Below, piece by piece: positions 1-8,790 of a DNA stretch of 8,790 nt (positions are counted from its first letter, which is position 1; every line of letters starts with the position of its first letter). The position numbers were made by a program, and so were the translations under genes. The notes under the pieces are model-generated. The model saw only the letters and a program-made list of their open reading frames with translations. It ran no database searches and was not told the DNA's origin. Source of the DNA: a virus (Duplodnaviria > Heunggongvirae > Uroviricota > Caudoviricetes); IMG/VR virus record IMGVR_UViG_2703718806_000011, positions 1 through 8,790 of that record; one strand, given 5' to 3'.

Positions 1-114
1 AACACGCGCATAATTTTCGGCTGTCATGCTGTCCGGCTGCGTGGCCTGTTCGTCAGCCTGCTGGCTGATTCCGGCGACGCGGCGGATTAATCCCAGTATT
101 TCGGCTTCTGTCAT
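1..114 (-). CDS. Hypothetical protein, N-terminal 38 codons only (MTEAEILGLIRRVAGISQQADEQATQPDSMTAENYARV...); runs off the window start
   Basis: ATG at 114-112 with a G-rich stretch (GGGGG) 5 nt upstream; open frame to position 1. Too short in-window to appear in the ORF track. Sits downstream of the capsid gene, so possibly another head-module gene (inference). Confidence 0.35.
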   Translation of the reverse strand, partial: MTEAEILGLIRRVAGISQQADEQATQPDSMTAENYARV

Positions 115-255
115 TGTGCCCCCATCGCGCTGGTGAAGAAAACAAGCTCAGATTTTTTGTAAAGAATCTGTCACGCTAAAAGATGTCGAACAAAAATTAA
201 CCACAATCATCATCTTTTTTGCATCAACAACATTAAAAACAACAGGTTACACACA

Positions 256-350
256 TGATGATGATGACGATAAAATCACAAAAATGCGCTTTTTTCCGCG
301 CCGCCCGCCCCGTGTTCAGGCCCACCCCACCAGGAGGACCCGCAAAAAAG
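256..350. repeat. Copy 1 of a ~95-bp direct repeat (core 281-350, about 93% identical to 2818-2888), with a (GAT)n-like trinucleotide stretch at one end
   Basis: Aligned by eye against 2793-2888. Shared core AAAATGCGCyTTTTTCCGCGCC...GCCCCGTGTTCAGGCCC(A/C)CCCCACCAGGAGGACCCGCAAAAAAG. Confidence 0.6.
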
Positions 351-365
351 GCGGCTGGTGCCGCC
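341..365 (-). terminator. Rho-independent terminator just after the capsid gene stop
   Basis: GC stem GGCGGC-tggt-GCCGCC (350-365), followed on the minus strand by TTTTTTG (349-343); lies 6 nt beyond the stop at 372. Confidence 0.6.
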
Positions 366-371
366 TTGTTG

Positions 372-2261
372 TCATAGTGAATCGGTACCACCTGATTTGA
401 CCATACCGCGATAATCCAGAGCTGCCACACCTGCATCAATACGGACTTTCCAGGCCACGCCGTCAACGATAAAACCTTCCTGCTGTTCAAGGTAAGGTTC
501 GTCATTACCATCAAGATAAGCCACCTCGATTGTGTCCGTTCCCTGTGCGGAAAGCATGTACCATTGTTTTTCGCTGATATCATCAAGGCGGGGATCGACG
601 ATGATATCAAGTAGCTTGTGATACGGGTTAAAGATCCCGCTGTTTTTATCAGCCCCGAAAGGTGCGGTTGAGTTAATCATCTGCAACGCGCGATCTTCCA
701 GTGCTGCCGGAACTAAAAGGAATTTAGGCGCAATATTCAGCACTTCGCCATTTTTGTCCTTCTGTGTGCGCATCAGGTGACGTGCTGCACTAAGTCCCGG
801 TGTTGTCAGTCCTGCTTCAATCAGGTTGCTGTGTTTTTTGTCAAACAGCGTTATTCCGTCAGAAAGTTTTACGTTGCCTGTAAGCACCAGATTAACCAGA
901 TTTCCCACCGTTCTTGATGCTGCACGGCCCATAGCCATTGGCACCGTTGATAACTGATCAAGGTCATCATTGATTATCGCCTGGCGGGTAATGCTGAAAA
1001 TATTCCCGTAAGTAGCCAGCGCGATGGGTTCACCGCGATCGCTGGTGGTGATGTATTTATATTCTGCCCCTTCCGGCACTTTGTTTAACGTTGAGAAGCC
1101 ATTCATACCAACGCGGCGGGCTTCCCGGAAGTTTGAAAGGGAACCTTTTTTCGTCCACTGGCGGAATGTTTCGCCACTGTGCTCCCAGCCTGCAAGCACT
1201 GATTTTTCAGCGCCACCAGCAAGGATATCGGTAAAATCGCTGCTGCTGTGGGTGAATGCCGCGTTTACTATCTGCGAGCGTGTGCCGTAGCTGCCCGTGC
1301 TTATACCACGATGGGTTAATGATGCCTGTGCCATATCGAAAAGGCTCATCATGGCGTAAGGATTACCGCGTTCGGCCCGTTCGTGACCAAGACGCGCATT
1401 AAGCCCCTGACGCATGGCATCGCCGGTTATATTGCCGTTATCCGTGTACGCGTAGTAAAGATTTGCGGGGGTGGTTTTGTTTGTTGGCGTTGATTCTTTA
1501 CCCATAGCGAGTAAAAGGCGTTCGCGTGCATTCTCAACGCTACATTCTGAATCCGCAAGACAACTTATAGCCAGGTCGTTATATCTTCCGTTGAAGGTGC
1601 CAAACAATTCACGGATTCCGTTAAGTCGTTCCTGTTCGCCACTGCCAGTTTTCTGGCTGATCATGCTTTTAATTTTTTCCGGCATATTTGAAAAATCTCC
1701 GATTCGTTTTGATTCAATTCGGGCCATTGCTGTAATCGCGGGTATAACCTCATCTGCGAAGCCGTTAGCCTTACACTCATTGCCATCCATCCAGGTTTCC
1801 GCCTCCATCATGGAGGTGATCTCCTGTTTGCTCCTGCCCGTTCTTCCGGCATAGGTTTCTGCCATCGTGTCGCCCAGCTTGTCCATCAGATCAGCAAAGC
1901 GGCGAACGTCGCCCGACACTCCGGCAGTAACACCACGGGGGGCATGTATCATCATCATCGCGTTTTCAGGCATAACGATGTGATCTCCACACATGGCAAT
2001 AAACGACGCCATAGAAGCCGCCATGCCTTCAATGTGTACGATTTTTTTTGCCGGATGATTTTTCAGGGCGTTATAGATAGCCAGCCCTTCAAAGATGTCG
2101 CCACCAGGTGAATGAATGCTCAGATGGATTTCAGACGCATTACCACACGCGTTGATCTCGTCAGTAAGTGCCGATGCTTTTACACCGTACCCGCCGATCT
2201 CGTCATAAATGCGCACATAGACAACATCTGCCATAGCCTTAATGGAAAACCATGTTTTCAT
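372..2261 (-). CDS. Prohead serine protease (ClpP family) fused to HK97-fold major capsid protein, 629 aa
   Basis: N-terminal ~170 aa aligns with ClpP around the catalytic residues: IHSPGGD, GMAASMASFIA (compare ClpP GQAASMGAFLL, catalytic Ser) and MMIHAPRG (compare ClpP VMIHQPLGG, catalytic His). The C-terminal ~400 aa has the length and composition of an HK97-family capsid protein. RBS TAGGAG 8 nt upstream of the ATG at 2261. Confidence 0.85.
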   Translation of the reverse strand: MKTWFSIKAMADVVYVRIYDEIGGYGVKASALTDEINACGNASEIHLSIHSPGGDIFEGLAIYNALKNHPAKKIVHIEGMAASMASFIAMCGDHIVMPENAMMMIHAPRGVTAGVSGDVRRFADLMDKLGDTMAETYAGRTGRSKQEITSMMEAETWMDGNECKANGFADEVIPAITAMARIESKRIGDFSNMPEKIKSMISQKTGSGEQERLNGIRELFGTFNGRYNDLAISCLADSECSVENARERLLLAMGKESTPTNKTTPANLYYAYTDNGNITGDAMRQGLNARLGHERAERGNPYAMMSLFDMAQASLTHRGISTGSYGTRSQIVNAAFTHSSSDFTDILAGGAEKSVLAGWEHSGETFRQWTKKGSLSNFREARRVGMNGFSTLNKVPEGAEYKYITTSDRGEPIALATYGNIFSITRQAIINDDLDQLSTVPMAMGRAASRTVGNLVNLVLTGNVKLSDGITLFDKKHSNLIEAGLTTPGLSAARHLMRTQKDKNGEVLNIAPKFLLVPAALEDRALQMINSTAPFGADKNSGIFNPYHKLLDIIVDPRLDDISEKQWYMLSAQGTDTIEVAYLDGNDEPYLEQQEGFIVDGVAWKVRIDAGVAALDYRGMVKSGGTDSL

Positions 2262-2452
2262 AGCCAGGCTCCTAACGTTGCCTGGTACCAGTATTCAACC
2301 GCGCTGCGTGTGATTTGTCCTTTCGTGGGCACTGGCATACCCGGGTGATTATCTTTGATGAACTGCTGATAGCGTTCGATCTTCTCCATAGTTCCGGCGT
2401 CTATGTGCACAGTGGCACTTTTATCCGGCTTTCTGGTGTTGTTCTCTGGCAT
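2258..2452 (-). CDS. Hypothetical small protein, 64 aa from the favoured start at 2452 (ORF track start 2485 gives 75 aa); translationally coupled to the capsid gene
   Basis: GGAGG lies 7 nt upstream of the ATG at 2452, whereas the ATG at 2485 has no Shine-Dalgarno. The stop overlaps the capsid start (ATGA). Predicted strand-helix-helix pattern (ATVHIDAGTMEKIERYQQFI...) suggests a small DNA-binding or assembly factor (inference). Confidence 0.5.
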   Translation of the reverse strand: MPENNTRKPDKSATVHIDAGTMEKIERYQQFIKDNHPGMPVPTKGQITRSAVEYWYQATLGAWL

Positions 2453-2647
2453 AAATCCGCCTCCGTTTTGATTAACGGGCATCATTATTGATCGATAAAA
2501 GTAATAGATAAATCATTTTCTACCTGAAAATCAGATTATGTTTTTTCTGATTATTCTCAGAAAGGCAAAGTTATTGACGCATTTTTGCCATTGAAGCAGT
2601 ATTAAGACTCGTCATCCTGGCGATAAAAACTCCTTTGTCGTGTAAAA

Positions 2648-2683
2648 GCGCCTCCGGTAACAGCAATCGGGGGCGCTTTTTTT
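2648..2683. terminator. Intrinsic terminator, strongest in the plus orientation and probably bidirectional
   Basis: Stem GCGCCTCCG (2648-2656) / CGGGGGCGC (2668-2676) with one G-U pair, followed by TTTTTTT (2677-2683) on the plus strand and preceded by AAAA, which gives UUUU on the minus strand. Confidence 0.5.
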
Positions 2684-2792
2684 GCGCCTGTTTTTTTGTA
2701 AATGCTTTCGGGAACGCTCCAGTGATGAACAAAAAACAACCTGATTCGACACTAAAATTTTTTATTCCTCAATATATCAATAACTTATAGTG

Positions 2793-2888
2793 GTGGTGAT
2801 GGTGCCATAAAAATCAAAAAATGCGCCTTTTTCCGCGCCCCTCCGCCCCGTGTTCAGGCCCCCCCCACCAGGAGGACCCGCAAAAAAG
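2793..2888. repeat. Copy 2 of the ~95-bp direct repeat (pairs with 256-350); carries a C8 tract at 2859-2866
   Basis: Aligned by eye with 256-350. The two copies differ by one indel and a few substitutions, so plus-strand reading frames through them are not conserved, arguing the element is non-coding. Confidence 0.6.
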
Positions 2889-2904
2889 CCGGATTGCTCC
2901 GGCT
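2880..2904 (-). terminator. Rho-independent terminator after the SSB-like gene
   Basis: Stem AGCCGGA-ttgc-TCCGGCT (2887-2904) followed on the minus strand by a T-run (complement of 2881-2886); lies 16 nt beyond the stop at 2920. Confidence 0.6.
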
Positions 2905-2919
2905 TCTGTCACTCGTTGC

Positions 2920-3177
2920 TTAAAACGGTATGTTATCCCCGTACGGATCATCGTTACCCGCCACGCTCACCAGTTCGCCTTTGTGGTGTTTTGCCAGTGC
3001 GTCGGCCTGTCTGCCAAACGCCAGGACGGATAACCACATCGTCGCCGTTCCGTCATCGGCCTGGCTGCACGGCAGGGGGATAGCCATACCCGCCATCGCC
3101 ATTTGTGTACCCTTGCTGGTGGTCTTTAACTGTGGGTCAGCCACCAGCCGCCCGTAAGCGGCTATCTGTGCTGTCAT
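2920..3177 (-). CDS. Truncated SSB-like OB-fold protein, 85 aa, ending in an SSB-type acidic C-terminal tip (...DDPYGDNIPF)
   Basis: The N-terminal part resembles the start of E. coli SSB (IAAYGRLVADPQLK vs VILVGNLGQDPEVR; WLSVLAFGRQADALAKHHKGELVSV vs [26 protein letters not shown]), and the last residues DNIPF match the SSB tip DDDIPF. Start overlaps the upstream gene stop (ATGA). Confidence 0.6.
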   Translation of the reverse strand: MTAQIAAYGRLVADPQLKTTSKGTQMAMAGMAIPLPCSQADDGTATMWLSVLAFGRQADALAKHHKGELVSVAGNDDPYGDNIPF

Positions 3178-3443
3178 GATTCCACCTCTCCGGTTTTAAT
3201 GTTGATGGTTGTTACCTGTTCCGCTTCGGCAATCTCCCGTTCTGTCAGCGTGGCAAAGTTTGCCGCCGCTGTGGTCATGAATGCGCTTATCAGTTCGGGA
3301 TGTTCCTTCGCGTATCCTTCCCCCGCGTGGCGGTCTATTACCCTGATTGCTACCTTTAAGGCGTGCTCTGTCATGTCTAACGCTTTATATTTTGGCTCTG
3401 TTCTGTCTCTGCGCATTTTGGTTATCTCCTCACTCATGCTCAC
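3174..3443 (-). CDS. Hypothetical protein, 89 aa (GTG start at 3443; alternative ATG at 3437)
   Basis: Plausible composition; GAGG lies 7 nt upstream of the GTG, inside an ori iteron; coupled to the downstream SSB-like gene by a 4-nt overlap. Confidence 0.5.
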   Translation of the reverse strand: MSMSEEITKMRRDRTEPKYKALDMTEHALKVAIRVIDRHAGEGYAKEHPELISAFMTTAAANFATLTEREIAEAEQVTTINIKTGEVES

Positions 3444-3630
3444 TTTTGCGCCTCACTTTTTAAAGCGTCTCGCTTCGTCTCACTTGATATTTTTGATGTT
3501 TTTATGTGCATGTTTCATAAGGATTTTTTACTCCTCACTTTTTGGGGTATATATACGTTGAAAAGTGAGGAGTTCAGGGGGTTTTTCGTGCAATTCCTCA
3601 TTGTCCTCACTTTTGCGCCTCACTTTTTAC
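3429..3630. repeat. Putative origin of replication: iterons of consensus CCTCACTTTT around an AT-rich core
   Basis: The 23-bp unit CTCACTTTTGCGCCTCACTTTTT occurs at 3439-3461 and 3606-3628. A perfect 12-bp inverted repeat CTCCTCACTTTT (3531-3542) / AAAAGTGAGGAG (3561-3572) flanks a TATATATA spacer. Partial copies at 3429-3435, 3477-3486 and 3596-3603. AT-rich stretch 3481-3530. Lies immediately 3' of the replication gene. Confidence 0.55.
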
Positions 3631-5036
3631 AGAGGGCCTACATCATCACCGTCGATATAAATAACCCCGTCTTTTTCCAGCTTGCGTAGCCAGCGGCTGA
3701 AGTTTTTCATTTCGTACCCCAGCTTTTTCATATCGTCACGTAACAGCGGGATCGTGCACTTGTCGCCGTGCTGTGTGCGTGACCGGATACATCCCCATAG
3801 CGCAGCATGATTCTCCGTCTTGTTGCCAGCCTCTTCGATGCGCTCCAGTTCAACGGGAGGACGCGGCTTATCCACCACCACCAGCGACGTGATTAACTCC
3901 CCGTCAGCGTCGGTAAAAAGCTCCACCACCCGCAAATCATAGGCAGCCTCTTTGAGTTCCTCCGCGTCCTTCATTTTGGTGCATGAGATAACCAGCGCTT
4001 CGCTTCCTGCGTCCTCCCTGCGTATCCGGTATTCAGCGTCCAGTGATGCACGAAATGCACTGGAACCACGCGCCCCCTTTGTTTCATCCTTGCCGGAATG
4101 GTGAACCACCAGCACCGTAGCCCCTGTGCGCCGTTTAAGCTCGTCACAACCACGGATAAATGCCCCCATGTCGCGGGAGTCATTTTCATCATTGCCGCCA
4201 AAGCAACGCGCCAGCGTGTCCAGAATAATCATGCGAACAGGTTTACCCGTTTCCCTCTCCACCTGACTGGCAGCAATAACCAGTTCATCAACATCAAGCG
4301 GGACAGCCGGAAAGATGGGACGGTTTACCAGATACAGATTTTTCACCTGCTCACCGTGCACAACCTCCCAGGCTTTTACACGACGCGGAACGCCGATACC
4401 GCCTTCACCAACCACATAGAGAACAGCGCCATGCGCCACCCTGCGGCCTCCCCACTGGCGGCCCGTGGAAACGTGACACGCCCACGATCCGGCAAGGAAT
4501 GATTTATAGGAACCGCTCGCCCCGTATATGCTGCAAAGCGACGATGCCGGAATAATCCCCTTTACCACGTAATCAAGCTGTGTGTCGTATCCGGTAGATC
4601 CAACGCTCATCGGTAGCTTGGTTTTTCGCTGGGGGATTTTTTTCATGACCAGGCTTTCCCCGCGTTCCCATGCCTCCCTAAGCCGTGGAAGCTGGTCGCT
4701 CCATTCCTCCAGCAATTCGAAATTTTCAGAAAGTAGCCGCGCCTCCTGGACTCCGGCGATCGCCAGTTTCGTGGCGATGGTTAACAGCTGCGGCTCTTCA
4801 ATATTTCCGGCGCGTATCACCGTCGCCCTGTATCGCCCATCATCAACAATCTGGAGGTTATCCAGTTCGCTTAACTGATAACGCCCCAGATAAACGGGAG
4901 GGACTGGATCGCCTGCTTTTTTGGCCTGTGCAATGATGTAATGCTCTGCGAATGAGTGAGCATCAATACCCGCAAAAATAATCGCATCGGTGTATTTATC
5001 TTTCGGTAATCGTTTTACGTTCGGTGCCAGTTTCAT
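3627..5036 (-). CDS. Replication protein with a RepA/DnaB-like (RecA-fold) ATPase domain, 469 aa; primase/helicase-type satellite replication initiator
   Basis: P-loop-like IYGASGSYKSF, Walker B-like RMIILD, and HHSGKD, as in RepA-like helicase domains (from memory, unverified). AGGGG lies 6 nt upstream of the ATG at 5036. Start overlaps the upstream gene stop (ATGA). Confidence 0.8.
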   Translation of the reverse strand: MKLAPNVKRLPKDKYTDAIIFAGIDAHSFAEHYIIAQAKKAGDPVPPVYLGRYQLSELDNLQIVDDGRYRATVIRAGNIEEPQLLTIATKLAIAGVQEARLLSENFELLEEWSDQLPRLREAWERGESLVMKKIPQRKTKLPMSVGSTGYDTQLDYVVKGIIPASSLCSIYGASGSYKSFLAGSWACHVSTGRQWGGRRVAHGAVLYVVGEGGIGVPRRVKAWEVVHGEQVKNLYLVNRPIFPAVPLDVDELVIAASQVERETGKPVRMIILDTLARCFGGNDENDSRDMGAFIRGCDELKRRTGATVLVVHHSGKDETKGARGSSAFRASLDAEYRIRREDAGSEALVISCTKMKDAEELKEAAYDLRVVELFTDADGELITSLVVVDKPRPPVELERIEEAGNKTENHAALWGCIRSRTQHGDKCTIPLLRDDMKKLGYEMKNFSRWLRKLEKDGVIYIDGDDVGPL

Positions 5037-5332
5037 TTTTTACCCCTGAATCCGTTAATCATGGTTTTCAGCTTCTGGATGTTTGCCCGTGCCCTGGCGT
5101 TGCTGGTGGGCACGTTATGCGGCGCGGTCTGTACCAGAGAAAAATCACGCCGGAACTGATAAACAGGCATCACGCAATCATATTCGTAACCTTCACGGCG
5201 GTAAGTTACGCACCGTCCCGCCACGCCCTTAATCATTACCGTGCCGCCGTACTGGTCGCGGTAAATATCACCGCGCGTAAATTTAGGGTGAGTGTTGCCA
5301 CTGGCAGTTAAGCCAGAATATTTAAGTTTCAT
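5033..5332 (-). CDS. Hypothetical protein, 99 aa; resembles small conserved proteins found beside replication genes in P4-like prophages
   Basis: ORF-track protein with GDIYRDQYGGTVMIKGVAGRCVTYRREGYEYDCV, probably beta-rich. GGAG upstream of the ATG at 5332. Last gene of the small-gene operon before rep. Confidence 0.6.
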   Translation of the reverse strand: MKLKYSGLTASGNTHPKFTRGDIYRDQYGGTVMIKGVAGRCVTYRREGYEYDCVMPVYQFRRDFSLVQTAPHNVPTSNARARANIQKLKTMINGFRGKK

Positions 5333-5337
5333 TATTT

Positions 5338-5571
5338 TTATTCTCCGGTGTGCTGTTCGTTATATCTGTCGTGCAATTGGTCTATTTCTTGTAGTTCCAT
5401 TATTACAGGCTCAAGAAGCGTTATTAATGCCGTGACAATTCTTGATTTTTGTTTGTCGCGTTCATTGTCGCCAAGTGTTTCAAGCCATATGCGCAATATT
5501 TCCAGCATGTTTTCACTGTGAGAAAGTGCAATAAATGCGCGGTCTATTGTTTCAAGGTAAATATCACGCAT
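5338..5571 (-). CDS. Hypothetical small protein, 77 aa, predicted helical
   Basis: AGGGGG then TAAT before the ATG at 5571; the upstream gene stop TAA is 1 nt before the start. Confidence 0.6.
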   Translation of the reverse strand: MRDIYLETIDRAFIALSHSENMLEILRIWLETLGDNERDKQKSRIVTALITLLEPVIMELQEIDQLHDRYNEQHTGE

Positions 5572-5572
5572 A

Positions 5573-5794
5573 TTACCCCCTGCCAGACATTTTTCTTAAA
5601 TCAGATTCAGCAATATATTCCGCATAATCGGCAGTAATATTCAGTACGTCTATTCCAGTTGATTTATATTCTTTCGTGCCAAGTAAGAAAAATGCCGCTC
5701 TTATCAGTTCGGATATTGACGAAAGCGCATCACCTGCATCATCAGGCGCACCATCAAATTCCTTTTTCAGGGAATTAAAACGATCATCACGCAT
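5573..5794 (-). CDS. Hypothetical small acidic protein, 73 aa from the favoured start at 5794 (ORF track start 5842 gives 89 aa)
   Basis: The internal ATG at 5794 is preceded by the G8 tract that also encodes the C-terminal glycines of the upstream gene, and overlaps that gene's stop (ATGCGTGA). The longer N-terminal extension is hydrophobic and has no Shine-Dalgarno. Confidence 0.5.
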   Translation of the reverse strand: MRDDRFNSLKKEFDGAPDDAGDALSSISELIRAAFFLLGTKEYKSTGIDVLNITADYAEYIAESDLRKMSGRG

Positions 5795-6008
5795 AACCCC
5801 CCCCATTTTCACAATCAGCAACAAGAATATTTTTAGCGTCATTCAGCGACCGCGTGGCGGTGTATCGGATACATTCCAGGGCGAACGATGTGTATTCTTC
5901 CCGTTCTTCCTTTCGTGCAAGCTCTGCTGTGCATTCAATATCAATAAGCGCGTGCATCAGCGTAGTGAGTGCGGCGGCGGCTGCGTCCGGTGTGGTTTTA
6001 TTGCACAT
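5787..6008 (-). CDS. Hypothetical small acidic protein, 73 aa from the favoured start at 6008 (ORF track start 6062 gives 91 aa)
   Basis: GGAGGGG lies about 4 nt upstream of the ATG at 6008; the ATG at 6062 has no Shine-Dalgarno. C-terminus ...ENGGGYA. Confidence 0.5.
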   Translation of the reverse strand: MCNKTTPDAAAAALTTLMHALIDIECTAELARKEEREEYTSFALECIRYTATRSLNDAKNILVADCENGGGYA

Positions 6009-6228
6009 GTACCCCTCCGCATTTTTTTTCGTTAGAAATAAGCGTTCTTCTTTCCTGTTCATCGCTCAGGAATACGCAGACCTCACCGCTAAGGCGTTTA
6101 AGTAAGCCGATGATTGCCCCTGATTCGCTGTCGGTCATCATGCCAGGGTAATCCTCTGCCAGTGCGCAAATAACTTCGATTTGGTGGGCGCGTTCTGCTG
6201 CCTGTTGTAGTGTGATTTCCTGGCTCAT
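5998..6228 (-). CDS. Hypothetical small protein, 76 aa from the favoured start at 6228 (ORF track start 6285 gives 95 aa)
   Basis: AGGAGG lies 8 nt upstream of the ATG at 6228, which overlaps the upstream gene stop (ATGA). The longer form would begin inside the upstream gene with a Cys-rich, implausible N-terminus. Confidence 0.55.
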   Translation of the reverse strand: MSQEITLQQAAERAHQIEVICALAEDYPGMMTDSESGAIIGLLKRLSGEVCVFLSDEQERRTLISNEKKCGGVHVQ

Positions 6229-6419
6229 AAGCCTACCTCCTGACGAATACGGGCGGCAAATACAGCAACACAACCGGACGGGCAACGGCTACGCGCTTCG
6301 CGTTCCGTCCAGGCGGTTACGTGGATGATTTGAGATTCTCCGGCACTCAGTGCCAGAAAACGCCACATAAAGGCAGTTTGTGTGTGTACAAGGTGTGGTA
6401 TATGATTTACGGCAACCAT
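6225..6419 (-). CDS. Small protein, 64 aa, first gene of the early operon; possibly Icd-like (host cell-division inhibitor family common in P4-like prophages)
   Basis: Strong RBS GAGGAG 6 nt upstream of the ATG at 6419. The Icd-like assignment is from memory of the family pattern (aromatic-R-F-L-A-L core) and is unverified. Confidence 0.55.
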   Translation of the reverse strand: MVAVNHIPHLVHTQTAFMWRFLALSAGESQIIHVTAWTEREARSRCPSGCVAVFAARIRQEVGL

Positions 6420-6450
6420 AACGGCTCCTCGTTTACGTTGTTGGTTAGAA

Positions 6451-6491
6451 GCCCTGCGAGTGGTAACGACACTTGCGGGGCTTTGCTTTTT
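6451..6491 (+). terminator. Terminator-like hairpin plus U-tract on the plus strand; role unclear
   Basis: GCCCTGCGAGTG (6451-6462), loop GTAACGA, CACTTGCGGGGC (6470-6481), then TTTGCTTTTT. Two G-U pairs are allowed only in the plus-strand RNA; in the minus-strand RNA they become C-A mismatches. Confidence 0.3.
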
Positions 6492-6508
6492 ACTGTACCT
6501 ACTGATAT

Positions 6509-6552
6509 TGTACGTACGTAACGGAAATGATAATAGGAGTTACGTACGTACA
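6509..6552. promoter_or_regulatory. Palindromic operator: perfect 14-bp inverted repeat TGTACGTACGTAAC / GTTACGTACGTACA, arms separated by 16 bp
   Basis: Arms at 6509-6522 and 6539-6552. Each arm contains the self-complementary 10-mer TACGTACGTA, with copies 30 bp centre to centre. Overlaps both the early promoter and the RHH translation start. Confidence 0.6.
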
Positions 6553-6558
6553 TGTCAA
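6530..6558 (-). promoter_or_regulatory. Near-consensus sigma70 promoter for the minus-strand early operon
   Basis: On the minus strand: -35 TTGACA (6558-6553), 17-bp spacer, -10 TATTAT (6535-6530). Predicted transcription start near 6523, about 100 nt upstream of the first operon gene at 6419. Confidence 0.55.
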
Positions 6559-6743
6559 CATTAAAGCGCGATAAATCGCCACGCGGTGAGGGATGGTCTC
6601 CAACCTTCCAAATCAGAATCAGTAAAGAGCTACGCCAACAAGTAAATGAAGCTGCAACTTCTGACGGTCTAACCCTTGGTAACTGGTTTAAAGAATTAGC
6701 CAGGGCAGAACTAAAGCGGCGCGGCATAGAACCCAAAGGGTAA
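6552..6743 (+). CDS. Ribbon-helix-helix (Arc/CopG-like) DNA-binding protein, 63 aa; candidate repressor of the early operon
   Basis: Strand-helix-helix pattern FQIRISKELRQQVNEAATSDGLTLGNWFKELARAEL. The only convincing plus-strand gene, divergent from the early operon. AGGAG lies 12 nt upstream of the ATG, which sits inside the operator and the spacer of the opposing promoter. Confidence 0.6.
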   Translation: MSTLKRDKSPRGEGWSPTFQIRISKELRQQVNEAATSDGLTLGNWFKELARAELKRRGIEPKG

Positions 6744-6834
6744 TTACATTGCCCACCAGCCTGATAGCGGCTATCATTCCCGTGCTTATGTTTGGGATCA
6801 CATACACATAAGGCGCAGCAGGTTAATTGTTCAG

Positions 6835-6867
6835 AAAGGCGGCTCCATATCGGGGCCGCTTTTTTTA
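6835..6867 (+). terminator. Rho-independent terminator downstream of the RHH gene; may also stop convergent alpA transcription
   Basis: AGGCGGC ... GCCGC stem followed by TTTTTTT (6861-6867). Confidence 0.5.
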
Positions 6868-7007
6868 TGCCTGAAAAACCCCAATTTTGTTGTTTTTCAG
6901 TTTCACCAGGGCGAACGAATCCCCGCCCACGTTCGGGCGCATATTCAATCTTCATGGTTATATCTCTGTATTAGTGGATGTGTGGCGACTGTGTGCCGCC
7001 AGTCTTT

Positions 7008-7196
7008 TTAGTGAACTGCCTTGCAGCTATCCTTCCAGGCCAAAACCTCAGATAAAGACCAGCCAACAGAACGCCCGCCAAGTTTACGACGTGATGGGAA
7101 TTGTCCGGCCTTTTCCAGGCGGTAGCGGCATGAGCGGCTAAGGCCTGTTAGCTTTTCGCATTCTTTTTCACGTATAAACCGATCAGTGCTTAACAC
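7008..7196 (-). CDS. alpA: AlpA-family (excisionase-like, MerR-type) phage transcriptional regulator, 62 aa, GTG start
   Basis: ...EKLTGLSRSCRYRLEKAGQFPSRRKLGGRSVGWSLSEVLAWK matches the AlpA helix-turn-helix pattern. AAGGGGG lies about 4 nt upstream of the GTG at 7196. Confidence 0.8.
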   Translation of the reverse strand: MLSTDRFIREKECEKLTGLSRSCRYRLEKAGQFPSRRKLGGRSVGWSLSEVLAWKDSCKAVH

Positions 7197-7247
7197 TATT
7201 GCCCCCTTTCGTTTCTTAAAGAGTCATCAGGTGTCTTATTGTGTCGT

Positions 7248-7276
7248 ATTGTTCCCGCTAGTGTGGTGAATGGCAA
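7248..7276 (-). promoter_or_regulatory. Candidate sigma70 promoter for alpA
   Basis: On the minus strand: -35 TTGCCA (7276-7271), 17-bp spacer, -10 AACAAT (7253-7248). TATTGT-containing direct repeats at 7231-7255 overlap the -10 and start region. Confidence 0.3.
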
Positions 7277-7345
7277 ATGTTGATGTCGTATGGTTTACAG
7301 AAAGAGGAATAATCAGGATAAAATCATTTAAATTCATGTTAATAC

Positions 7346-7378
7346 AAAGGCATAAAATCTTGTTTTATGCCTTTTTTC
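7346..7378. terminator. Hairpin terminator between int and alpA, probably bidirectional
   Basis: GGCATAAAA-tcttg-TTTTATGCC (7349-7371), followed by TTTTTT on the plus strand and by TTTGTATT on the minus strand. Confidence 0.45.
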
Positions 7379-7468
7379 GCACGCTTTAACGCGTAATTCG
7401 CTAATGTATAAAAAACCAGTTAACCAATAAAAATCAGTAACTTATAAATCTGTATTCTTTTTGGCCTC

Positions 7469-7518
7469 TTGTTCGTGATTGTGTCACGTTGTTGCACATT
7501 GTTTCACGTTGTATCTGT
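7469..7518. repeat. Five direct repeats with exact 10-bp phasing (TTGTnnCACG-like) just 3' of int
   Basis: TTGT at 7469, 7479, 7489, 7499 and 7509; units TTGTTCGTGA, TTGTGTCACG, TTGTTGCACA, TTGTTTCACG, TTGTATCTGT. Confidence 0.4.
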
Positions 7519-7560
7519 GCACTTATCCAGTATGTGCATACTGAAAAAACACGAAAAAAA

Positions 7561-8790
7561 TTATTTTATTCTGGTTACTGGTAGCGTGGTTACGTTTTCA
7601 TGTGCTCCCGCCAGTATCCCTAACCGCTCCGTCCACATATCCAGCGCATCACGTTTCGCATCGAGATAACGGGAGTGGTTATAGACTCGTTGCATCCCTG
7701 GCATCTGATGACCTGTAAGCTGCTCCACGACGTGAGGATCCACGCCCAAATCATTCAGCATCGTTGTAAAGGTGCGCCGGATGTCATGCAATGACCATTG
7801 AGGGTGTTTTAGCCTCCTGTGCGCTAATCTGCCGTACTGCGATACGCTGGCCTCCTGTTTCACTTCCCCCAGTAATAAGCCCGTGTGCCTGTTCTGGTCC
7901 ACCAGCCGCGTGACGAACGGCAGGATCGCTTCCGGTATGGGCCGGAATATTGCAACCTTCGTTTTGCTGTGCTCCTTCGGAACGGTCCATAGCATTTCGG
8001 TAAAATCCCACTCGCTGATCTCCGATAACCTCAGTTCTACCGTCCTGGCTCCGAAGACAATCAGGAGGCGGATTAACGCGACGTAGTAAGGAGAAAATAT
8101 TTTTTTATCCAGCGCCTGCAATAACTCGCCCAGTTCTTTGGTGCTTAAGACACGTTCGCTTATATCCGGTTTTTTCCCAACGTCCGCCACGTTCAGATCG
8201 TCCAGAACGTTGCTGATTGCATAGCGCCGCCTACGGCAGAATTTAAGCGCCTGTTTGCATGTCTGTAGCAAGAATCCGGCAGTAACAGGTGTTCGCTTTG
8301 CCACCTGATCAAAACAGGCCAGCCAGTGCCGTAGCTCGCATTTATCCAGCGGCATAGCACCAATTTTGATGATTATGTTTTTATTGATCCGGCTTTTCAG
8401 TGATTCGTAATCTGTGCGCTTTTCCTTTGCGTACGACTCAAGCCAGTAGGTGAGCGCATCGCCAACCGTTGCAGGCTTTAACGCTTCCTGCATGGTGTAA
8501 TTCAGTTCATAGCGTGGATTTTTCCCCTCAGCCAGCCATGCGCGACACTGTGCGGCTTTTTCCCTGGCTGCTTTCAGGCTCAGATCGGGATAATTTCCCA
8601 GCTTAACGCGTTCAGGTTGTGTCCCTCTTCCCGTTCCGGCCCTGTATGTGAAATACCAGGTTAAAAGGCCGCTGGTTGAATGCCTGACGCTCAGGTTTCC
8701 ACCGTCATTAAGAAAGGCTGTTTTTTGGGCGGGTGTGCCGTTGATTTTCCTTAGCTGTGTGTCACTCAGTTTGTTAAGTGCTCTGCTCAT
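7561..8790 (-). CDS. int: P4-type tyrosine integrase (site-specific recombinase), 409 aa
   Basis: N-terminal arm-binding-type region (LSDTQLRKINGTPAQKTAFLNDGGNLSV...), and C-terminal catalytic motifs HDIRRT (HxxR) and GHQ...VYNHSRY (catalytic Tyr). The ATG is the last three bases of the window (8788-8790). Confidence 0.9.
   Translation of the reverse strand: MSRALNKLSDTQLRKINGTPAQKTAFLNDGGNLSVRHSTSGLLTWYFTYRAGTGRGTQPERVKLGNYPDLSLKAAREKAAQCRAWLAEGKNPRYELNYTMQEALKPATVGDALTYWLESYAKEKRTDYESLKSRINKNIIIKIGAMPLDKCELRHWLACFDQVAKRTPVTAGFLLQTCKQALKFCRRRRYAISNVLDDLNVADVGKKPDISERVLSTKELGELLQALDKKIFSPYYVALIRLLIVFGARTVELRLSEISEWDFTEMLWTVPKEHSKTKVAIFRPIPEAILPFVTRLVDQNRHTGLLLGEVKQEASVSQYGRLAHRRLKHPQWSLHDIRRTFTTMLNDLGVDPHVVEQLTGHQMPGMQRVYNHSRYLDAKRDALDMWTERLGILAGAHENVTTLPVTRIK

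Follow-up and report, generated by a model that had tools for sequence, protein, structure and literature searches.

A truncated single-stranded DNA-binding protein gene in an Escherichia coli phage satellite is most likely a deletion remnant that kept its C-terminal tip

Is a small satellite gene that joins part of an SSB (a protein that binds single-stranded DNA) to an SSB-type C-terminal tip a new kind of protein or the residue of an ordinary ssb gene? The question is raised by an 85-codon open reading frame (ORF) in an 8,790-nucleotide stretch of a Caudoviricetes virus record (IMG/VR IMGVR_UViG_2703718806_000011, positions 1 to 8,790), the whole of which we refer to as the window. A sequence-only reading of the locus had suggested that the product could serve as a decoy for SSB-interacting proteins or as an adaptor recruiting host factors to a satellite origin, and had given equal standing to an in-frame deletion remnant. 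Our analysis favors the remnant. We put at roughly 80% the probability that this ORF represents a loss-of-function allele, recent in origin, of the replication-module SSB gene of a Gram-negative phage-inducible chromosomal island (PICI), an E. coli phage satellite. A broken gene, not a novel kind of protein, is the most likely reading.

The product (MTAQ...GNDDPYGDNIPF, also written MTAQIAAYGRLVADPQLK...VSVAGNDDPYGDNIPF) matched the Pfam SSB profile PF00436 with 32.9 bits (E 7.1e-08), above the gathering score of 26, and PHROG 44 (ssDNA-binding protein) with an E value of 1.9e-20, while the score against NCBIfam TIGR00621 (25.7 bits) fell under the cut-off of 53.95. Judged by the Pfam and PHROG matches, the similarity to SSB is significant and not a matter of chance. 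The Pfam match covered residues 5-75 on profile positions 4-77 of 104 only, an alignment from which the C-terminal quarter of the OB domain is absent, and the product ends DDPYGDNIPF. The description of the protein as a truncated SSB OB-fold running directly into an SSB-type tip was therefore accurate. Among 5.8 billion proteins searched, 492 relatives were retrieved, and nearly all of these are annotated as 'single-stranded DNA-binding protein' and come from E. coli and its close relatives; they are typically 136-149 aa long and share 88-97% identity with the product across the first 75 residues. The motif D-x-IPF terminates 88 of the 120 best homologues, and the others in this set are partial, frameshifted, or end in LPF, ISF, VPF or APF variants of the tip. 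Tip conservation among homologues is thus borne out, and from these alignments we read the tip as a conserved trait of the intact family and its presence in the remnant as inheritance, not innovation. Separately, PHROG 28350, a 71-aa phage family of unknown function, matched the last 15 residues alone (AGNDDPYGDNIPF region; 2920-2964) with an E value of 9e-05; other small phage proteins may share an SSB-type tail or be truncated SSBs themselves.

The origin of the short allele could be read from its closest relatives. When window positions 2800-3500 were compared by megablast with 5,426 complete E. coli genomes, the best matches covered the whole query in two pieces and spanned about 865 bases versus the 701 of the query. 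The closest intact gene, from E. coli W24, encodes a protein of 140 aa (WP_000126627.1), and its alignment with the window was identical at 320 of 321 positions outside one 165-bp gap. The sole mismatch was the last flanking base downstream of the terminator; the coding sequences are identical. In the complete genomes of ST130, RM10410 and W24, the parent allele without the deletion shows 100% identity on either side of the gap. In the intact gene the gap is flanked by two copies of a 10-bp direct repeat, GGCGGGTAAC, located at gene positions 216 and 381 (spacing 165) and constituting the second-longest internal direct repeat of the gene. The chance that a random deletion in the parent gene would show at least 10 nt of junction microhomology is small (P ~0.0004). 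The junction product reads ...VSVAGN/DDPYGDNIPF (the slash marks the junction); in it, parent residues 1-75 (β1-β3, the α-helix and 7 residues from the start of β4) are followed directly by the 10 C-terminal residues of the parent, which form the tip. Complete identity to an intact allele save for a 165-bp gap at a 10-bp repeat demonstrates the remnant option of the sequence-only reading. The loss of the 165 bp between the in-frame GGCGGGTAAC copies, and of residues 76-130 with them, is typical of replication slippage or microhomology-mediated deletion.

The same junction bears on the inference that an in-frame tip had been retained by selection. The repeat spacing of 165 nt is divisible by 3, and Ala-Gly-Asn is encoded in the same frame by either copy. 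The deletion is therefore necessarily in frame, and tip retention follows automatically without any need of selection. The frame, and hence the tip, were preserved by this spacing, and the argument from selection does not hold. The case calls for caution: a domain fragment fused in frame to a functional tail can look designed, and here the repeat spacing dictates the frame.

A gap positioned exactly between direct repeats could also reflect an assembly or sequencing artefact that collapsed the two copies. We consider this extremely improbable, given that a 10-bp repeat is far too short for assembly collapse and that the allele comes from independent records. The exact 85-aa protein is on record, besides the window, as EFA1704753.1, as EGD0443951.1 and in one 9.3-kb Logan contig (L002) found in two samples. 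L002 and the window are about 98% identical in the block from capsid to helicase, with zero differences at 2784-3349, and their integrase modules are unrelated. Either the allele moved by modular recombination or it arose twice at the same repeat. The presence of the same deletion in satellites with unrelated integrase modules argues that it is not an assembly artefact and that it was not immediately purged; having outlasted at least one recombination event, or arisen twice, it gives the remnant reading a point to answer.

The allele is nevertheless very rare. In the 5,426 complete E. coli genomes, a 96-nt query centred on the junction gave no match in one piece; each of the 60 best places was split in two and covered 261 nt, the sum of 96 and 165. 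At least 1,235 of these genomes contain the N-terminal part of the gene, in up to six copies per genome. The comparison of these 1,235 genomes with the 749 that matched the deleted segment was discarded as an estimate of full-length alleles; it carries no information on this point, since linkers vary between the 136-, 140-, 141- and 149-aa types and elude megablast. The 165-bp deletion was found on one allelic background only, and with two NCBI records, one Logan contig and zero coding substitutions relative to the parent, the truncated architecture has not been kept up as a lineage.

Short repeats are a more general feature of this gene. The parent (L001 9121-9543, in W24) carries three in-register direct repeats that pair gene positions 175-225 with 355-390: GACGCACTG at a spacing of 180, GGCAAAACA at 186 and GGCGGGTAAC at 165. 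In each, one copy lies in the helix/β4 segment (RQADALAKH...VSVAGN) and the other at the linker's end (QATDALNRAKQQAGN). This linker may have arisen as a partial duplication of the OB segment that has since diverged, which would explain the proneness of the gene to in-frame deletions. With several in-register direct repeats, 9-10 bp long and spaced 165-186 nt, this PICI ssb is prone to recurrent deletions of this kind. Further in-frame deletions were indeed located at short repeats, namely the 9-bp GACGCACTG in an 80-aa allele, the 7-bp AGGCCAG and the 6-bp GCAGGG. In the 80/81-aa allele (P0062, P0149-P0153) residues 1-61 are fused to NRAKQQ..IPF through a 180-bp deletion at the 9-bp repeat. 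This allele occurs on at least 5 allelic backgrounds and more than 10 contigs, a distribution that points to a recurrent product of a slippage hotspot.

To place these deletions among all disruptions, we classified 153 sequences, comprising the best 120 of the 492 matches and their cluster members. Full-length genes with the tip accounted for 83 of them. In 15, an internal in-frame deletion leaves the N-terminus and the tip in place; these deletions, 15 to 180 nt long, go back to about 11 distinct events. Another 21 carried a novel C-terminal tail; without P0088, a full-length tip variant, this class leaves about 20 disrupted alleles, mostly frameshifts (including out-of-frame deletions in the same region) and perhaps a few rearrangements, all found with a query of the N-terminal part that biases detection to lesions in the C-terminal half. 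The remainder were contig-end partials. About 11 in-frame versus about 20 out-of-frame events approximates the near neutral 1:2 ratio of unselected indels.

The number of lesions could, on the other hand, suggest that disruption is repeatedly favored. A satellite whose SSB had shed its OB fold, and with it ssDNA binding, would evade defences that sense SSB, such as retron Eco8, AbpAB or DRT9/DRT10-type systems. Phage SSBs are documented triggers of AbpAB (PMC10732053) and an SSB-like protein triggers DRT10 (bioRxiv 10.64898/2026.04.29.721553); many independent second-half disruptions, in-frame and frameshift alike, and the spread of the 80-aa allele over at least 5 allelic backgrounds would fit such a scenario. 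Yet each disrupted allele is rare, whereas the clusters of intact alleles number from hundreds to more than 1,000 members. In so huge a sample some rare broken alleles would turn up in any case, and an N-terminal query reveals C-terminal lesions only. We therefore regard adaptive loss of the OB fold as very improbable.

What the deletion removed was examined on structural models. An intact homologue of 140 aa (P0004, sharing 96% identity with the window protein across the residues common to both) was modeled with AlphaFold from a 29-sequence alignment. The model has a mean pLDDT of 72.5 and strands at residues 2-11, 16-19, 25-36 and 44-54; a helix at 55-62 is followed by two more strands, 69-82 and 88-101, and by a low-confidence, disordered tail from residue 104. 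About 102 of its residues superpose on solved OB domains of bacterial SSBs (TM ~0.76, E ~4e-10), and a PDB sequence search agreed with this assignment. The 140-aa parent is thus predicted to have a complete OB fold (2-101), a linker of about 30 residues and the tip DDPYGDNIPF. The full five-stranded barrel (β1-β5, with an α-helix between β3 and β4) is present in the parent and absent in the 85-aa product, for the lost residues 76-130 comprise the second half of β4, the L45 hairpin, β5 and the entire linker. BLASTP alignment to E. coli SSB (26% identity) paired W48, F54 and W81 with the ssDNA-contacting residues W54, F60 and W88; the product retains the first two, and W81, the equivalent of W88, is deleted. 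Of the linker and acidic IPF tip, only the tip is left.

Modeled by itself from a comparable 19-sequence alignment, the 85-aa product reached a mean pLDDT of 48.5 (five models, 40.7-48.5) and a pTM of 0.15, whereas the retained residues score 83-90 in the parent model. These values are suggestive of a protein with no confident fold, although the alignments were shallow and 2 of the 5 parent models were poor too. A product unable to close the OB barrel would probably be unstable and could not coat ssDNA. The models and the loss of part of β4, β5 and W81 thus support the earlier expectation that a half OB-fold is unlikely to bind ssDNA as SSB does; the suggested structure prediction of the product alone gave no confident fold. 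The retained β1-β3 sheet could instead act as a poison subunit that co-assembles with full-length PICI SSB or host SSB into defective hetero-oligomers. In bacterial SSBs, β1 contributes to the dimer interface, and genomes often hold several copies of the PICI ssb (in up to 6 places). Identity to E. coli SSB is just 26%, however, and the remnant has no predicted stable fold, both of which make such interference highly improbable.

The surroundings of the gene identify the element (Table 1). The window has the layout of a Gram-negative PICI, with the listed island genes all on the minus strand in the order int, alpA, small ORFs, DUF4222, RepA helicase, iterons, phrog_1231 ORF, ssb, a cos-like element, phrog_4934 ORF and the capsid fusion; W24 and L002 share this organisation. 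Gram-negative PICIs of about 10 kb are arranged unidirectionally as int-alpA-...-pri/rep-ori-...-late genes, with the origin downstream of pri, and SSB is counted among the replication genes beside the origin (PMC10111431). Between the helicase gene and the ssb operon we identified three 18-nt iterons (TTTTGCGCCTCACTTTTT) spaced 82-85 nt apart and, within the same region, a 22-nt perfect-spacing palindrome at 3530-3573. This region is likely the PICI origin, and its position downstream of a RepA-type helicase gene (PMC10111431) makes the earlier mention of an adjacent satellite origin plausible.

Table 1. Positions of the ssb allele, its signals and neighboring features in the window.
Feature	Position	Strand	Remarks
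Integrase	7561-8790	-	
AlpA	7008-7196	-	
63-aa Arc/HicB-like ORF	6552-6743	+	Opposite strand to all other genes; directly downstream of a 14-nt inverted repeat
DUF4222	5033-5332	-	
RepA-family (AAA_25) replicative helicase	3627-5036	-	Same replication module as ssb
Putative PICI origin	3439-3632		Iterons TTTTGCGCCTCACTTTTT x3, 27-nt pair and 22-nt palindrome; between helicase gene and ssb operon
Upstream 89-aa ORF, phrog_1231	3174-3443	-	Unknown function; stop overlaps ssb start
Shine-Dalgarno-like sequence GGAGAGGTGG	3182-3191	-	4 nt 5' of ssb ATG
85-aa ORF, truncated PICI ssb allele	2920-3177	-	ATG start, 85 codons
Deletion junction, single remaining GGCGGGTAAC copy (codons Ala-Gly-Asn)	2953-2962	-	Two copies in parent, 165 nt apart
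Codons for DDPYGDNIPF, SSB-type C-terminal tip	2923-2952	-	Unchanged from parent allele
Terminator-like hairpin AGCCGG-AGCAAT-CCGGCT, then TTTTTT	2881-2904	-	15 nt past ssb stop codon
ClpP-like prohead protease/major capsid fusion, 629 aa	372-2261	-	NF045540, 888 bits

The integrase module of the window differs from those of W24 and L002. A near-identical satellite in W24 (L001 5669-16736) sits inside the large-terminase gene of a prophage, both halves of which are annotated as partial pseudogenes and flank the island; it is a helper-embedded PICI of the type described previously (PMC10111431). In type, the 629-aa protease/capsid fusion of the window matches a 675-aa fusion encoded by the helper prophage that surrounds the W24 satellite. 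A tblastn search of 50,697 phage records with the 140-aa parent retrieved no close homologue, only distant SSBs with less than 30% identity and mostly from Gram-positive phages, which argues that this SSB family is satellite-specific and not borrowed from a sequenced helper. Loss of the protein is probably tolerated because the host SSB, or the SSBs of co-resident PICIs, can serve the RepA-driven replication of the satellite.

The window also holds repeats outside the ssb gene. A 112-nt direct repeat at 256-367 and 2794-2905 (the second copy reaching to about 2690), 77% identical without gaps and 87% with gaps, follows the terminators of the capsid gene and of ssb and has the core CGGGTCCTCCTGGTGGGG.GGGCCTGAACACGGGGCGG..GGCGCGGAAAAAGGCGCATTTTT. 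It is 95% identical to a lambdoid-phage region between the lysis genes and a small-terminase-like gene (CP-1639, 1720a-02, VT1-Sakai, Stx2 phages and mEp460) and includes ACGGGGCGG, the sequence found at lambda cosN. The repeat is probably a captured helper cos or packaging site of which the window PICI has two copies. The end of the mEp460 record was set aside as a guide to the position of cosN; the record seemingly stops where a gene begins and not at a cohesive end, and gives no cut site. Elsewhere, a perfect 14-nt inverted repeat (TGTACGTACGTAAC ... GTTACGTACGTACA, 16 nt apart, at 6509-6552) looks like an operator for the small repressor-type ORF beside it, and a 25-nt repeat, ATCGGGG(G/C)CGCTTTTTTT(G/A)(C/T)GCCTG, is present at 2666-2690 and 6849-6873 with 88% identity, the first copy forming a terminator-like hairpin on the plus strand.

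Although truncated, the gene has kept its expression signals. Its start and the stop of the upstream ORF share a 4-nt ATGA overlap, and the two ORFs are probably co-translated. The hairpin past the stop codon was read from the sequence and is missing from the list of a simple terminator scan. With ribosome-binding site, translational coupling, terminator and promoter-proximal signals all intact, the mini-protein is probably made on induction. An antisense ORF on the plus strand (2930-3157) was considered and dropped for want of supporting evidence, and an Rfam search of the whole window at E <= 1 yielded just three sub-threshold chance matches, none close to the 85-aa ORF.

An expressed half-OB stub carrying the DNIPF tip could, on induction, titrate ExoI, RecQ, PriA or chi, or recruit them to the neighboring origin, as the sequence-only reading had envisaged. 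The intact tip belongs to the conserved D-x-IPF type and, being unaltered, might in principle still bind ExoI, PriA or chi; the allele is also present in two mosaic satellites. Against this role, the in-frame outcome is imposed by the repeat spacing, the ratio of in-frame to out-of-frame lesions (~11:20) is that expected without selection, and an allele so rare, with zero coding substitutions relative to its parent, has had no time for, and bears no sign of, adaptation. An SSB tetramer has four-tail avidity and ssDNA localisation, both of which a monomeric tip lacks, and the models predict no confident fold. We searched the literature and found no described phage or satellite mimic or decoy of the SSB tip. 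The nearest case is the DRT10 trigger preprint, which ties mobile-element SSB-like proteins with a C-terminal tip to ExoI/SbcB and to interplay with defence systems (bioRxiv 10.64898/2026.04.29.721553). Having found no positive evidence for a decoy or an adaptor, we consider either role very improbable; in a remnant, whatever tip binding to host partners persists would be incidental. A broader version would treat all in-frame deletions that strip the OB fold and keep the IPF end as sources of a small expressed peptide, which would compete with host SSB for ExoI, PriA, RecQ and chi or dodge SSB-sensing defences with partner recruitment kept, the in-register repeats acting as a built-in high-frequency switch. 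We mention this as a long shot.

The protein family, the type of element and the mutational mechanism are all already known. The allele carries little weight as a discovery: a textbook mutational mechanism has broken a satellite gene that was already catalogued. The natural 85-aa and 80-aa alleles are, however, ready-made constructs for studies of SSB-tip competition in vivo.

Comparison with known systems places the 85-aa allele closest to the PICI SSB of W24 (WP_000126627.1). The two are identical in residues 1-75, in the last 10 residues and in the DNA outside the gap, and occupy the same locus, past the RepA helicase gene, the iterons and a small ORF and before the cos-like site and the capsid gene; they differ in that the 85-aa allele is without residues 76-130. 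Other rare deletion alleles of the PICI ssb (80, 102, 103 and 112-128 aa; P0062, P0050, P0110, P0014, P0001-P0005 and P0033) are likewise in frame, with N-terminus and IPF tip preserved. As with the 85-aa one, several are found at short direct repeats, but their end points differ, and the 180-bp deletion of the 80-aa allele recurs on at least 5 backgrounds, in contrast to the single background of the 165-bp deletion. More distantly, E. coli SSB and the PF00436 family have N-terminal OB strands homologous to those of the product, the equivalents of W54 and F60, and a DDDIPF-type tip; the product departs from them in its incomplete OB barrel, in lacking an equivalent of W88 and the disordered linker, and in its less acidic tip (GDNIPF versus DDDIPF). 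Bas52_0087, the DRT10 trigger, resembles the 85-aa product in being encoded by a mobile element and in carrying an SSB-type tip. Phage SSB-like proteins of the Bas52_0087 type nonetheless have full OB domains, apparently need oligomerisation and show no sequence relationship to the 85-aa product.
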